A DNA stretch of 64,000 bases from Podarcis gaigeae (Eukaryota): the NCBI GenBank assembly GCA_964106915.2, contig OZ066919.1; one strand, given 5' to 3'. The notes beneath the pieces were generated by a model. It ran no database searches. It had not been told where the DNA came from and saw only the letters and a list, made by a program, of their open reading frames with translations. A program made the translations under genes and the position numbers. Shown here in pieces: positions 1 to 38,937 of this stretch (position 1 is the stretch's first letter; every line of letters begins with the position of its first letter).

Positions 1-442
1 ATTATCTCCTTCATATGAAGAGTCTTACTGGGTCACACGAGCAATCAATCATACTCAATAGTTTACCTTTTGACAGTGGCCAGTTCGGAATGTTTTAGAA
101 AATTCCAGCTTTCAACAGCATATTGTCTTGGGATAGCTACTTTTAGCAAAAAGATATATTTTGGGGTGATCTTAAGTTCTGCCTTTTCAGAAATTCTAAA
201 TTACCCTCTGATAGTGTAGCATATGTTGATACCCCGTGAGAGATGAAGGAGATACAGAAAATATGTACGAAGGACAACAGTGGTCATATCTGAATGAGGA
301 GCCAGTAAATGAATAGTAAAGAAAATGCCATTGTCAATAAAGACTATGCAATTGTTTGGTTCCTTAATCCCAGTTTCTACTTAATCAGCAGTCATACATA
401 TATTTTTGTCATGTTCATTTAAACGTGCTACTTACTATGAGA

Positions 443-12247: not shown

Positions 12248-13439
12248 AGAATTCCTTGAACGGAATACCCAAAAACTGAAGGCGCAGGCGATGGCCACAC
12301 CTAGCCCTTCGACACCACAACACATTATTCCAATGCGTAACCGCCACCCGAGCCCAAAAGGGGCTCACCACCAATACCCTCACAGCTGTAACCAATCCCC
12401 GATGCTGATGTTGATGCTAGTTAACCAAAAGTCATTCCCTTGGTCTGAAAGATGAACCCCATCATTCCGGTACAAGGCTTGGTCGCCAATCCGGATACGG
12501 CCATGAGAGATGACTCGGCCATACATAAAGCGCACCCAACGGGCTATTGCACGATTTAAGAGTTTCCTGGATTTTTCAATGGCCATACAGTTCTGCGCAC
12601 CGTGCCACACAATACTCTTCAGGAAGGAGGACCAGAACACCGTTGTTCTGGGACACAAGGCAGCAATCTCATCCAAATCTCTTTTTATGTGCCACGACAA
12701 GTCCACAGGATTTTCAAATAAAATAAGCTCCGAGGGGCAGAAGCAGCCTGTCTATACGAAATCCCCTACGTTTTCCTCTGATCTGTGCAGTGACTTCCAA
12801 CCTTATATCACGTGTCCTTGTGTATTCATTCCACTTGGGGGGGGGGGAGATCAGGTCCTCGAACCATCTCCTCCTGAAGAGAGGGGAGTGGTTGTGGGCG
12901 GGAGCCTGAGCCCCGCCTCTAGCAGGGGGCGTTAGCCCCCTGCCTCCCACTCACCTGGCTGGCGCCCACGCCCATCGGCAGGCACCCAACCAGGTGCCTC
13001 CGAGGGGGCGTGTACAGCAGCCTTAATACTGTGGCGCCAGCCCCTCCTCGGCCTCACTCTTCGTCGTCCCGTCGTGATTCACCCACCCTCCACTCCCTTT
13101 GAGCTCAGGGTCTTAGTTTTCCTTGGCCTTGCTATGGACCTTAGGTTGGTCGCCCTGGTTGTCCAGGGAGCCTGGTAGGAATTTTTCCATTTGGCATTAG
13201 GCTTTTTGGTTTTTTCGCCTACCGCGTAGCAACCGACGGGACGACGAAAAGTGAGGGCTGGAGGCTGGCGCCGCAGCAATTTAGGCTGCTGTACACGCCC
13301 CCCCTTGAAGGCACCTGGTTGGGCGCCAGCCAGGTGAGTGGGAGGCAGGGGGCAAACGCCCCCTGCTTGAGGCAGAGTCCGGCTCCCGGCCACAACCACT
13401 CCCCTCTCTTGTAGGGAGGAGAGTCTTTGTGCAGGGTTC
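12248..13439. mobile_element. Relic of a tyrosine-recombinase (Ngaro/DIRS-like) retrotransposon 3' region: SGNH ORF fragment plus long GC-rich inverted repeat
   Basis: Abrupt GC- and CpG-rich island in an AT-rich intron. Contains the SGNH-type ORF and ~200-bp inverted arms, and is flanked by TAACTT on both sides (12242-12247, 13440-13445). Confidence 0.65.
12380..12706 (-). pseudogene. C-terminal half of a transposon-borne SGNH/GDSL hydrolase-like ORF
   Basis: The 108-aa ORF ends ...ALYRNDGVHLSDQGNDFWL..., where DGVHLS is the DxxH block V motif of SGNH hydrolases. The N-terminal catalytic Ser block is not seen. SGNH ORFs are a known accessory of Ngaro elements. Confidence 0.7.
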
Positions 13440-17255: not shown

Positions 17256-18110
17256 TGATGTTGCTGTTGTTGTTTAGTCGTGTCCGACTCTTCGTGACCC
17301 CATGGACCAGAGCACGCCAGGCACTCCTGTCTTCCACTGCCTCCTGCAGTTTGGTCATACTCATGCTGGTAGCTTCAAGAACACTATCCAACCATCTCGT
17401 CCTCTGTCATCCCCTTCTCCTTGTGCCCTCAATCTTTCCTAAAATCAGGGTCTTTTCCAGGGAGTCTTCTCTTCTTATGAGGTGGCCAAAGTATTGGAGC
17501 CTCAGCTTCATGATCTGTCCTTCCAGTGAGCACTCAGGGCTGATTTCCTTAAGAATGGAGAGATTTGATCTTCTTGCAGTCCATGGGACTCTCAAGAGTC
17601 TCCTGCAGCACCATAATTCAAAAGCATCAATTCTTCGGCAATCAGCCTTCTTTATGGTCCAGCTCTCACTTCCATACATCACTACTGGGAAAACCATGGC
17701 TTTAACTATACGGACCTTTGTTGGCAAGGTGATGTCTCTACTTCTCAAGATGCTGTCTAGGCTTGTCATTGCCCTTCTCCCAAGAAGCAGGCGTCTTTTA
17801 ATTTCGTGGCTGCTGTCACCATCTGCAGTGATCATTGAGCCCAAGAAAGTAAAATCTCTCACTGCCTCCATTTCCTCCCCTTCTATTTGCCAGGAGGTGA
17901 TGGGACCAGTGGCCATGATCTTCGTTTTTTTGATGTTGAGCTTCAGACCATATTTTGCGCTCTCCTCTTTCACCCTCATTAAATGGTTCTTTAATTTCTC
18001 CTCACTTTCTGCCATCAAGGTTGTGTCATCTGCATATCTGAGGTTGTTGATATTTCTTCCGGCAATCTTAATTCCGGTTTGGGATTCATCCAACCCAGCC
18101 TTTCGCATGA
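17256..18110 (-). mobile_element. BovB (RTE clade) LINE, 5'-truncated, RT C-terminus still open
   Basis: ORF 17407-18138 contains GIKIAGRNINNLRYADDTTLMAES ... VVMYGSESWTIKKA ... LILGKIEGTRRRG, typical of BovB RT. (CAA)n-type tail appears as gttgctgttgttg at the + left end. Confidence 0.95.
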
Positions 18111-20524
18111 GGTGAAATGTTTTTACCAAAAAAACCACCCTGTTATTTTTTTAATTAAAAAAATCAAAAGAAATCCAACGATCATAATACCACCCATGCC
18201 TTAAAAGTTGCTTTTGGGGAGAATAGCTAATATATTTGTTTCAAACTTCTCAGCATACCCATGCTATCTGTAGCACAGTCAATCCTTGTTTTGCACAGGG
18301 GTTCTGTTCCAGAACCCTGTGCTTGCCAGTGGAGCATCTGTAAGCCCATTCCACCCCTTTTCATGACATACTAATGACTTTTTAGGGCTACTACCAGGTT
18401 CGGCACCATGCATGTGTGTGTGATCACACATCATTTGGCCATGCCTAAATTGGTCATTGTCTATATGCCTCCGGTTCTATATTTAAAAAAATGTACCCAT
18501 CCACCTCACTGCAGAAGTCTGGACACAAGTAAAAAAAACTATTAAGGGAGGACAAGCTGCAGGCAGGGATGGGTGCTGGCAGTTAGCTTGGCAACAACCA
18601 GAAAAGCACTTGATTTTCTGGGTGGGCCACCAAGATGGTACAGGAAGGCCTGGAGGGCACCTTGCCCAAGGCGCTCTCAAACTGAGTGCACAGTAAGAAC
18701 TACTGTGGATTCTTTATATGTGTTACTTAAAGTGGGAGAGGCATACACATCACTTCCAAGTAAGATCCCGCTGATAGCCTCACTGTGTGTAATCAAGTTT
18801 ATACCTAAGAAAGCATGCACAGGATTGTGGCCAGGATTCACATAACATTTTTCATTGATATTTTTATCTGGTCTGCATCCAATTTCTATTACACAATCGT
18901 AAATCAAGCTGAACTTGTCTTTGAAACCTGTATTCAGCAGGAAAATTGATGCAGCAAAAAAGACAAGGGGTTAAAGTGTCTTATTGTGTATAATATTAGT
19001 CTGTATAAATGTTTCCCTGTGATATCACAAAACACTGGTACAGGGTCCCCCCCCCCCCCCTTGCTAATTAGATAAGAATCTTTCTAGCTTGTTCTCTCCA
19101 AGGACACAGTTCTGGGCTGAAAGTTTCATTTTTAACTTGAGGGAGATGTTTCTGTTGGAATTCTGCCTGGGTCAGAGGAATGTGCCACAGCGTAGGCACC
19201 GGCAGATATTCCTTGGCGACCTCCCCGCTGCTACTCCCGGCAGATAAGCAGGCGAGGTCTCGGCGATTCTTTCCAGAAGTGTGAGAAGAACACACCGTTC
19301 CTTCTCTCTCCCCTTTGGTGTCCCCAGGGAGGGGAAAGAAGCAGACAGAAAACTATTTACATCCTTTATTTCTGTCTCTTACATCAGTACAGAGAAACAT
19401 GTCTGCACTCAACAGCAGTAAGAATAAACTCCACCCATGTACTTCCAGTACGGGTCATATGACACACACTGAGCTAACATCCGGTGCTCAGTACAGAATG
19501 GACTGCCCCTTTCTTCCCATGGCAACAGTCACAAACATCCTGTCTGGCTTTCCAGCCACAAGCAGCTGACTGAGCTGCTACAGCCTTTGCTTGCTGCTGC
19601 ATTGGTGCTTTATGATAACAGTTTCTCACCTTTTTCCCTCATCGGGAGGGCAGGTGATTTAACTAGCTAAATAATCCTAAAGGCATTTTAAAGTAACAAG
19701 ATAGAAAATTACTTAGAAATTCAGTCCCTGAAATTCCACTGAGATTCTTGCTTTCTGTGAATGTTAAAGTGCTGGGAATCTAACTTCCCAATTTCTTCAG
19801 ATTGAAACCAGTGCAGCATGTATGATTCTGAGCTGATGTCGCATACATGTTAGATGGATCTTTCCACATTAGTTTTGGATTTACTTCAGCTCCTCAGTAG
19901 AAGATATAAGTAATTTTTCAGGAGGCATAATCTTGCAACGTGATTTTCACACACAAAATCACCCTCTGAGAGCTAGTCTTCCTGCCTCTACACCCACCTT
20001 ATCACCAATTCAGGTTAATCCTCAAATACAGGACAGCAACAGTACCTGAATACAGAGAAAAATATATTTAGCCTGCAGTGTTATATAACCTGTCAGTTAA
20101 CAAATTCATGACACAAAGTAAAGCCATGTAACCCAATTGAAACAGTTTGTATGGGAGGCTGATTTCCCTTGGGAACAGCAACATCAAGTAAGAAACTGAA
20201 CCCGTTAAGTATAACCTTTTCAAAGGGCAGAAAAATTCAAAGGTAATCAAGGATTTTCCCCTAGAAGGGCATTTATAATTATATTCCACTTTTATTTATA
20301 AAAAGCCTTTTAATGTTGGTACTACAAAAGGACTCCACACAAAGAAGTCTTGCTTTATATAACTAGATTCCATCCCCAAGCCCTTTTATATGCAAACGGC
20401 TCTTGACACAAGCTAAGCACTGACAGAAGAGAATTCCCTTTCAGAACTGGGAGATACATTTCCAAAGTAGCGCATGAGAGTTTAGTCATATTTCTCTCAC
20501 TAATATCATGGAAGAGATCACATA

Positions 20525-31128: not shown

Positions 31129-31345
31129 CACACTAAGTCCCAGAAGTTCTCTGCAGTAGTAGTCCATGCTCCTCTTCTGTAAATTATCAAGATAATGCTG
31201 AAGCCGTGTGTAAGTGTAGGGGTAGCAGTAAGCGAACTGGTATATGTCGTCTTCTCGATCAAAGCAGAAAGCAAATGACATAACGTAGTTCTTCCTGTGA
31301 TCAGGGCAGCGATAATAATACACATTTTTGGGTGGCAGCCTTTGC
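31129..31345 (-). CDS. AGBL4: Internal coding exon of AGBL4 / cytosolic carboxypeptidase 6 (tubulin deglutamylase, M14 family); probably orthologous to human exon 5
   Basis: Translation (W)QRLPPKNVYYYRCPDHRKNYVMSFAFCFDREDDIYQFAYCYPYTYTRLQHYLDNLQKRSMDYYCRELLGLSV includes the AYCYPYTY motif of CCP/AGBL proteins and matches remembered AGBL4. Minus-strand acceptor tcttatcttttAG (+ CT at 31346-31347) and donor GTAAGT (+ ACTTAC at 31123-31128). Length 217 nt = 1 + 72 codons. Confidence 0.96.
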
Positions 31346-36160: not shown

Positions 36161-38038
36161 CATTACCCCATACATGGCTGCTTGACCAGTTTCGTCTGCA
36201 GAACTAGCACAAGTGCCATACAACATCCATTCCACACTTGTAATGGATCAATCCTTCAGCGTGGCAGTATCTACACTTTGAAACTTACTGTTTTCACTGT
36301 ACTGTTTCTGGTACCTGCTAAAAGATCTCTTTTTTTTGTATAGGAATAATATGAGTGTTATATGTACAGTGCAGGATTGGGCAAAACAAGCCACTTTTAG
36401 GCTTCTGGAAACAAATCCACCCCCTGCCCTCAGGCTCTACCTCTTCCTCGAGGAATAAAAGGCTTAAAGAGTAAAATCTCTGGCTTGGAGCCTAACATTC
36501 CTCCAGTCTGGGAAATTCATTTGAGCATGTTGCCAGGTTGAGATGGAGACATGAGTCCCTACAGTGGATGAATCCAGTTCTGTGAGGATTGCATGCTCCA
36601 TGAGTAAGAACTTAAAAAGTCCCAATTTGGATGAAGAGCCCATGGTCCACTTGGGCTTGGGCTGTGGCTCAGGCCTAGCCATGATGTCGCCTGGGTTGTT
36701 CTCTGGTGCTGCTATGCTGAAGGTCTGGGCCAGCCCCTCCAAACCAAAACCTTGGCTGCTTCTGAAATTGGAGGCCTGGATAACTGTCTCTGCATCTGTG
36801 TGCTGCTGAATGTGACTGGACCCTCCTCATCAGAGCCCAGGTTGTTGCACCAGGCAGGAATCCTGATACCACCCATAGCTAGAAAAGCAGGTTGTAGGGT
36901 GGGTTTTGAGCAACAACATGGCTGGAAGTGAAAAAGCTAAGCACTCCTCCTACCCTGCCATTCTTCCTCTTCAACTCATAGCTTCACAAGGCTGCTTTTA
37001 GTTAAAAAGAAGGGTAAGAGAAGATTCCTTGTCCTTTCCTCCTTTAGTCTTTTCACTTTATGTTATTCTTCAGTTTTCAGTCTAATTGACTAGAACTTAT
37101 CATTATGGTATAGAATGTTTTGACTTTATTTTTTGCAGTCCATAGCAGCCTGGGAACAAGAAACCAGCCTAAATCTCACACCCCAGTCTCTATGGTACAT
37201 TGTCAGTAGACCACACGGTCAGCTTTAATAGCCTCTTAGCTTCAATTAGCCAATTAGACTTTTCCTCTATTTCCCATCTCCCTTTCCCATCTGTTCATCT
37301 ATTCCCATTCCCCTCCTTTCTGCAGAAATAATTTTTAAAATCCATGTGAACTTCATTTAGGGTACTCTTGGGTGGCATATCTTGCACACAAGACTAACTA
37401 TAAAAACCTCCCAAGAATACAAAAAACTACAGCAGTAATTTGGTGATGTCTGAATTTCAGATGCTGTTTTCACACACATCTGCATCCAAACTACAAACAT
37501 AATGGGTTTTTGTTGTTTTGTTGTTTGGTCACAACGTAAGTTATTAATATGAAATTAAAGTAGCTGCAATACAAATTTGATGTAGACAGAATATCAAACA
37601 GAATTTGTTGAGTCATCTTTGGGTTTATAATAGTATTGCATATATTCGTTGATTTTTATTTTTACTGTGGAATGTGTGATTCAAGTGGGCAAACATTTTC
37701 AGATGCACTTTCAGAATAAACTAAACTGCATAATCTCAATAGAAAACATTTACAATATGTTTCTCTGTGTTTAAGAGCTTTGAATTCTCACCACTTTCTT
37801 TTCCCAAGAAAAGATTTTCTGACAGCACATGCATTTTTTAAAAAAAGATTCTCGATAAGACATTGGACTCTGTAAACCCCCTACCATCTTGTAGCCCTTG
37901 CTGAACTGTATCCCTGCCACTCCCGTGACTTCCATTGACCCCAGATGTTCTGCAGATGAGCACGCTGACCCCATCACCCAATACCTCTTTCTGGTGGTGC
38001 ACAATTGGATGTATTCTATGATTATTTAATGCCATATA

Positions 38039-38250
38039 CAAAACAAAAAAAATTCCTTCCAGTAGCACCTTAAAGACCAACTAAGTTAGTTCTTGGTATG
38101 AGCTTTCGTGTGCATGCACACTTCTTCAGATACACTGCATGCACACGAAAGCTCATACCAAGAACTAACTTAGTTGGTCTTTAAGGTGCTACTGGAAGGA
38201 ATTTTTTTTGTTTTGACTATGGCAGACCAACACGGCTACCTATCTGTAAC
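38039..38250. mobile_element. Penelope-like element (PLE) terminal-repeat insertion in inverted configuration
   Basis: Perfect 80-bp inverted arms (38039-38118 / 38136-38215) containing tagttggtctttaaggtgctactgga, which resembles reptile Penelope pLTR ends. 12-bp TSD TAATGCCATATA at 38027-38038 and 38251-38262. Confidence 0.8.
38096..38133 (-). ncRNA. Minimal type-I hammerhead ribozyme motif (PLE-type)
   Basis: Minus-strand RNA GUAU-CUGAAGA-A-GUGUGCAUGCACAC-GAA-AGCU-C-AUAC: stem I GUAU/AUAC, core CUGAnGA, stem II, GAAA, palindromic AGCU stem III and a UC cleavage site. Confidence 0.75.
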
Positions 38251-38937
38251 TAATGCCATATATTCATTCATTGCTCATTTTATACTCATTCAAAGTCATC
38301 CCCTCATCAAGAATAGGTCAGATGAATCTATTATACAGGGACTGGGGAGAAAGCATATTTGGGGAAAGGAAGATTAACAATGTAATTTGGAACACATTTT
38401 AACAAGTGTCCAACATTCTGATATACCTTATTTCCATATGGAAACCTTGAATCACAGTTGTGAGTGGGGGAGAACTTGGGAAAGTATAAACAAGAGGTGA
38501 GGAGGTTGGCTTTGATTTCTGTGAACTCTTTCTTCTTGGAGAGTGAGCGTTTACAGGTTTCTCTCGTCTGCTTTTTGTCTTTGTGAAAGAAGAGTTCACA
38601 CTCAAATGCTTCTTGCATTTATTCAAGCAATTTCAAACCATTCCACTTTGTGCTAGCCTAACTTTCACATTCCCTTTAGTTAATTACTTGTAGTTCGTAC
38701 TTGAGAGAGCAATATTAGTTACTCTGATCAACTCTGATTTATTAGTTACACTGATCTGAACACTGCTTTAAAATGGACCCCTTTTCCCTATTGATTTGAA
38801 ATTTGGCAAGTATGATTCCTAGGAGGAACAAGAATGCCTGAAAAATTCATGCTGATTTGAAAAATTCATGCAGAAGTATAGACAGCAGAAATGCAGCAGG
38901 GTCTCCCATTGAAAGCAATGCAAAATGAAAGGGTATA

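Follow-up and report, generated by a model that had tools for sequence, protein, structure and literature searches.

Introduction

Hammerhead ribozymes in amniote introns include HH9 and HH10, which are conserved, functional, single-copy and active as monomers. The closest described relatives of the motif considered here are the minimal hammerheads of metazoan Penelope-like elements (PLEs), of which Cervera and de la Pena (2014) reported reptilian examples from turtle and snakes (PMC4209133). According to the same paper, a minimal PLE hammerhead does not cleave as a monomer and cleaves at a low level as a dimer. Two other sources state that the hammerhead of PAc, a PLE of Anolis, cleaves only with its protein (PMC11167929) and that one of nine Xenopus retrozyme dimers cleaved (bioRxiv 10.64898/2026.07.22.740005).

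Here we describe a PLE hammerhead lying in an intron of AGBL4 in the lizard Podarcis gaigeae, within a 64,000-nucleotide stretch of contig OZ066919.1 that was analysed as a whole and is called the window below. Our reading, to which we give a probability of about 0.88, is that a Neptune-type PLE left a young stub of 212 bp here, its two parts joined head to head, and that an 80-bp hairpin is predicted to trap the hammerhead, which is likely inert in the AGBL4 transcript.

Structure of the insertion and its host gene

The insertion is 212 bp in size (38039-38250) and is flanked by a perfect 12-bp target duplication. Its parts, together with the host exon, are as follows.

38027..38038, plus strand: left target-site duplication, 12 bp, identical to the right one
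38039..38137, minus strand: 5'-truncated pseudo-LTR (pLTR) copy, tail-less, 99 nt, with the whole hammerhead inside, beginning 4 nt before stem I
38096..38133, minus strand: minimal type-I hammerhead of the pLTR, predicted cut between 38100 and 38099; a descriptor match with features as in PMC4209133
38039..38215, minus strand: perfect 80-bp hairpin predicted for AGBL4 pre-mRNA, closed by a loop of 17 nt (38119-38135), z -26
38136..38250, plus strand: another 5'-truncated pLTR copy, 115 nt, running the opposite way, beginning within stem II and without CUGAnGA
38216..38250, plus strand: 35-nt "tail" on one arm only, with the ATG of the ORF (38219) and its first 10 codons; tblastn match
38251..38262, plus strand: right target-site duplication, 12 bp, identical to the left one
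31129..31345, minus strand: coding exon of AGBL4 (CCP6), the host context, 6.7 kb downstream of the insertion in the direction of transcription

The motif is surrounded by an inverted repeat, with arms at 38030-38118 and 38136-38224, which does not appear in the preliminary description of this DNA. The two arms, the tail on one of them and the target duplication were all observed directly. The plus-strand copy overlaps the minus-strand copy by 2 nt and matches another family locus (L028) at 97.4%, and its reverse complement forms the masking arm in AGBL4 pre-mRNA. The N-terminus encoded by the 35-nt extension equals that of the full ORFs of the parent element (loci L051, L056, and L060), and, going by this coding content, the extension is the PLE tail, since it encodes the first ORF residues. 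The arms are identical across 80 bp, and this identity, along with the perfect target duplication, points to a recent insertion. The reverse transcriptase (RT) of the element would have made two copies of the initial ~100-130 nt of the element's RNA at one cut site, the two copies probably being primed from the usual start points, i.e., the tail end and the no-tail end.

The coding exon at 31345-31129 (minus strand) is flanked by canonical AG and GT and encodes 72 aa. The best match in a homologue search was a 100% identical lacertid lizard protein with CCP Pfam domains, and related proteins are either named CCP6/AGBL4 or bear the name of the overlapping locus BEND5; Pfam and PDB searches with the 72-aa exon did not identify it and returned a weak CCP5 match only (E 0.3). 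The remaining AGBL4 exons lie on the same contig and on the minus strand, on both sides of the motif, over about 727 kb, which places the motif in an AGBL4 intron some 87 kb long, with 6.7 kb between it and the downstream acceptor. The minus strand, which carries the hammerhead, is thus the AGBL4 sense strand. Homologue search and exon mapping therefore bear out the earlier placement of the motif in sense orientation in an AGBL4 intron upstream of the exon.

Other repeats were seen in the window as well. Two LINE fragments with RT-like frames on the minus strand (17256-18150 and 57924-58322) are 95% identical to each other, and a GC-rich element at 12877-13410 has nested inverted arms of 54, 37 and 33 nt, about 300-470 nt apart.

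The hammerhead motif

Read on the minus strand, 38133-38096 agrees letter for letter with the motif first described and consists of GUAU and CUGAAGA followed by a single additional A, a palindromic stem II of 14 nt, GAA, AGCU, C38100 and AUAC, with the cut predicted after C38100. The hammerhead core, i.e., CUGAnGA, GAAA and a UH cleavage triplet, is intact throughout. Signs of a minimal type-I hammerhead of the PLE kind are also present: A38122 is the extra base between positions 9 and 10.1, G38121-C38108 is the G10.1-C11.1 pair, AGCU is the palindromic 15.2-16.2 segment, and GUAU/AUAC form a helix I of 4 bp. Stem III has no loop and requires a second copy of the motif to form.

When both strands of the 64-kb window were scanned with a minimal-hammerhead descriptor, this motif was the sole match, with 0 matches in 20 shuffles. 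In contrast, an Rfam covariance-model scan with E values up to 10 matched no hammerhead family at the insertion, likely because the motif has no loop III; both scans had been proposed in the preliminary description as checks. Folded in isolation, the 38-mer is predicted to form stem II with a probability of about 0.98 and stem I with a probability of about 0.7, and its folding energy is no better than that of shuffled sequences (z -0.44).

The young family copies are nearly identical and yield no covariation signal. A looser motif search returned 156 matches against 28 control matches with a pattern that itself fixed the core and the G-C pair, and a comparison set of seven older motifs was picked by eye from the 12 non-family matches among 30 loci. 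Between the window motif and these seven, both partners differ in 5 of 9 pairs, and every slid control falls below the true register in paired cells and in covariation score. The comparison thus leans towards covariation, but scores as high were reached by 35-70 of 500 shuffles. A decayed older family sharing the core and AGCU, with different stems, is seen at L196, L197, L201, L202, L205, L206, and L209.

Parent element and copy number

A genome-wide count of the motif, which had also been suggested beforehand, gave 11,151 exact copies of its 34-mer (5,575 forward and 5,576 reverse, with 0 for the control). The parent ORF was found by walking upstream from sister copies into the ORF end, and the flanks proved to be PLE sequence continuous with an RT/GIY-YIG ORF. 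Of 20 loci fetched by the ORF end, 14 carry the exact motif on the sense strand; in 13 of these ORF-end loci, including L031, the distance from stop to motif is about 185 nt, and in L038 it is greater. One copy (L041) has an RVT_1 domain (E 1e-9, above the cut-off) and a GIY-YIG domain at its C-terminus (E 0.009, below the cut-off). Two others (L051 and L060) have uninterrupted frames of about 930 codons whose N-terminus equals that of the tail in the window, and in L060 the pLTR continues into the ORF start.

Taken with the insertion itself, the traits of an endonuclease-bearing (EN+) PLE are all present, namely a single ORF with an RT plus GIY-YIG at its C-terminus, an inverted 5'-truncated copy, a tail and a target duplication. 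The motif is thus a genuine, intact PLE minimal hammerhead. In this respect the preliminary description holds: it saw a minimal type-I PLE hammerhead, gave it a palindromic stem III and placed it on the AGBL4 sense strand, and the RT/GIY-YIG continuity and the strand of the exon back this. We call the parent element Neptune-type on the strength of a CX2-5CxxC linker between RT and EN (residue 793 of the L051 frame), an assignment by a Cys linker common to Nematis rather than by an RT tree; PMC8557442 gives this motif for both Neptune and Nematis. Unbroken Neptune-type frames of at least 930 codons are seen in L051, L056, and L060, in copies 98-99% identical. From its sequences, the family looks recently active.

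To describe the copies, a sample of 104 was drawn by a 3' anchor from the first 4.3 Mb of contig C1. An inverted partner accompanies 51 of the 104, and the 3' ends are concentrated at +53..59 and +92..95, counted from the cut site. Inverted partners and two clusters of 3' ends correspond to the published layout of an inverted copy, a tail and two RT start points, as given in PMC8557442, PMC3846280, and PMC11167929. Among the copies L071-L151, some inverted junctions fall on the palindromes of the motif (stem II, five copies at -22; AGCU, two copies at -5), and short stretches of the motif, copied a second time, are present at many 5' junctions. Junctions on palindromes and re-copied pieces suggest fold-back priming and template jumps. 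Elsewhere on the same contig (C1:9791961-9792238), a tandem array of at least four units of 75 nt contains a whole hammerhead in each unit. Such a retrozyme-like arrangement is one in which dimers could form.

5' ends of family copies

If cleavage made the 5' terminus of the template for reverse transcription, copies should begin at the cut site, and those of this family do not. Across the family, a base other than C precedes the cut site in 144 copies, against 11,766 copies with C; this 1.2% is an upper limit for starts at the cut, and among the 100 listed of these 144, 45 were judged by eye to be point changes or small indels in copies that continue. None of the 104 sampled copies starts at the cut site. 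Instead, a non-element base stands directly before the first G of stem I in 2,321 of 8,471 copies (27%), and 33 of the 104 sampled copies begin within -38 to -30.

The base at this position is frequently an extra G, found in 1,521 of the 2,321 copies (65.5%), compared with 32% expected from composition. At a control position 10 nt upstream there were only 30 such copies, 7 of them with G by eye. Among informative junctions in the 104-copy sample, 11 of 26 within the peak have a preceding G, compared with 3 of 52 elsewhere. Some of the extra Gs come from an inverted partner ending in CAG, which by eye applies to about 10 of 100 copies listed. Among 30 loci in which the extra G was compared with the target duplication, an adjacent duplication was present in only two, one with the G inside and one with two extra bases. 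The pLTR has promoter-like motifs, one TATA-like at -67 to -61 and one initiator-like (TCAGT) at -39 to -35. The peak of copy 5' ends at the first hammerhead base, with its excess of extra G, stands about 30 nt after the TATA-like motif (e.g., L161-L190, position 1526).

The 5'-end peak and the extra G are most simply read as run-off of the RT from the end of a capped RNA whose first base is that of the hammerhead. In LINE-1 insertions, an extra G results when the cap is copied. Extended to the whole life cycle, this reading would have a capped mRNA start at the first hammerhead base about 30 nt after the TATA motif, and the RT, from the tail or no-tail point, run off the cap and leave the extra G. 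Only uncut RNA would be copied, the hammerhead would serve as a decapping switch 64 nt upstream of the ATG and not as an end-forming enzyme, and the stubs of ~100-130 nt would be complete cDNAs of the mRNA 5' end. For this extended account, we see an even chance that it is right. The family counts bear on the question of what PLE hammerheads do, and suggest that cleavage does not define copy ends and that the ribozyme sits at the start of a capped mRNA. Parts of this picture have been reported, in so far as PMC11167929 names uncut RNA as the main template and PMC3846280 describes TATA and Inr motifs in a pLTR. A literature search, largely limited to open-access papers, found no published account of the 5'-end peak or the extra G.

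A spliced-leader origin of the peak was also considered, as a TTTCAG just before the motif resembles a splice acceptor, and PMC4209133 describes a D. virilis intron that ends at helix I. This origin is disfavoured, given that the listed junctions have no common upstream exon and that most of the peak is displaced by one base beyond the junction that splicing would give.

Folding in the AGBL4 transcript

In the sense of the AGBL4 pre-mRNA, the insertion region is predicted to fold as one long hairpin of -161.9 kcal/mol (z -26). The predicted penalty for a hammerhead-compatible fold is 1.3 kcal/mol for the bare motif and 7.6 kcal/mol for its own arm alone, and rises to 36.4 kcal/mol in the whole insertion or in a 500-nt context. 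Of the 38 motif bases, 23 (38118-38096) are predicted to pair with the other arm at a probability of 0.97 or more, and these take in the greater part of stem II, then GAAA, AGCU and the base at the cut, and finally AUAC, which is the 3' strand of stem I. In minimum-free-energy (MFE) folds of growing transcripts, the capture starts as stem II emerges, and the hammerhead is never formed. During AGBL4 transcription, the antisense arm would thus emerge first and capture each hammerhead base from stem II onward, the CUGAAGA strand alone staying free in the hairpin loop. As a neutral passenger, the hairpin would later leave with the intron at splicing. All folding described here is prediction, and the hairpin could be opened by helicases, by ADAR editing or by cleavage in the nucleus.

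One alternative is that the insertion acts through the hairpin itself, with the 80-bp duplex being edited by ADAR, cropped to small RNAs against the Neptune family or altering the splicing of a nearby exon. Its perfect 80-bp stem and z of -26 are in keeping with such a role, and with 51 of 104 sampled copies being inverted pairs, the family is a large potential source of duplex. The hairpin also matches miRNA-precursor models, the best being mir-559 at 61.6 bits; however, all of these Rfam scores are under the gathering thresholds (95 bits for mir-559) and match the stem shape only, and the locus was rejected as a miRNA precursor of this or the other models. Any effect on splicing would have to reach an acceptor 6.7 kb off in an intron of 87 kb. 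Edited or diced intronic hairpins are common and usually inconsequential for the host gene, and we regard a role of this kind as improbable here.

Still less probable is a hammerhead fold in nascent AGBL4 RNA that forms a dimer with another copy, either in cis or in trans and perhaps aided by the element protein, and cleaves the intron, so that AGBL4 transcripts would be reduced or truncated. That an active version could cut the nascent transcript had been proposed at the outset. The core is intact and in sense orientation, thousands of identical copies are possible partners in trans, and the Anolis PLE hammerhead cleaves once its protein is added (PMC11167929). A ribozyme functional for the host would, however, be foldable in the pre-mRNA context, and here the predicted penalty is 36.4 kcal/mol, with the masking arm made first. 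A scan of 724 kb of AGBL4 (C15:54368001-55092000) found two sense and two antisense intact cores in three insertions, all four masked by inverted partners with predicted penalties of 36-61 kcal/mol. The only other intact sense core lies 237 kb upstream and is itself masked at 59 kcal/mol, so that a free copy with which to dimerise is absent from the 724 kb scanned. AGBL4 pre-mRNA is unlikely to be cut, because the hairpin masks the motif and the one further intact sense copy in the gene is both distant and masked, and the proposal is left unsupported.

Even between two bare motifs, the modelled hammerhead dimer (-11.1 kcal/mol) is far weaker than the cofold MFE through the stem II palindrome (-30.6 kcal/mol). 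Family copies almost never start at the cut site, which also speaks against cleavage, and a cut intron can still be spliced: PMC2995048, citing its refs 13 and 38, states that slow hammerhead cleavage inside an intron did not prevent splicing. Elsewhere in the genome, 23 of 40 sampled exact 38-mers have penalties below 10 kcal/mol and are not masked. The contrast between 4 of 4 masked in AGBL4 and 23 of 40 free elsewhere involves numbers too small to show a purging of free sense copies. Judged by these models, the copy in the window is among the family's worst candidates for cleavage.

A chance match or a non-Penelope fold-back element (MITE) has a negligible likelihood: although no Rfam hammerhead model matches and the insertion, being palindromic and flanked by a target duplication, looks like a MITE, this identity is refuted by 0 descriptor matches in 20 shuffles, by direct continuity with RT/GIY-YIG copies (the L041 domains and the full frames in L051 and L060) and by arm junctions that differ between copies, unlike those of a fixed MITE.

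Discussion

With the masked, passenger stub as the preferred reading, the locus itself is of little import, being a neutral repeat stub within a very large intron. Were cleavage of AGBL4 RNA nevertheless to occur, thousands of sense sister copies would represent a possible genome-wide burden on lizard genes, and such a burden is better sought among the unmasked copies, i.e., the 23 of 40 sampled with penalties below 10 kcal/mol, than at the AGBL4 locus.

The locus resembles HH9 and HH10 in that its hammerhead lies sense-oriented within an intron of the host gene, and differs from them in being a young high-copy repeat stub with no loop III. It is closer to the metazoan PLE minimal hammerheads, with which, following PMC4209133, it shares the type-I topology, the 4-bp helix I, the extra base at 9/10.1, the G10.1-C11.1 pair, the palindromic 15.2-16.2 segment and the pLTR location, as well as the occurrence of thousands of scattered single copies from truncated elements and of pairs on opposite strands. 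Set against that account, the present family is from a lacertid lizard, its copies are near-identical, and the copy in the window is masked by its own antisense arm. Stem II here is a perfect 14-nt palindrome folding as 5 bp, whereas that of Schistosoma has 7-8 bp in the same source.

As an insertion, the locus matches the EN+ PLE units described in PMC8557442 and PMC3846280, with head-to-head inverted copies, a short target duplication, an overlap at the inverted junction, a tail of 30-40 bp at one end encoding the first ORF residues, and TATA/Inr-like pLTR motifs. Unlike those units, it has no ORF body between its ends and measures 212 bp in all. Within lizards, the nearest counterpart is PAc, a Poseidon element of Anolis carolinensis (Frangieh et al. 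2024, PMC11167929), in which, as described there, a hammerhead likewise lies close to where the ORF begins, the tail is defined by two start points of the RT, and the RNA that serves as main template is uncut. PAc belongs to the Poseidon clade and its ORF starts in stem II, whereas the element described here is Neptune-type, with its ATG 64 nt downstream of the cut site.
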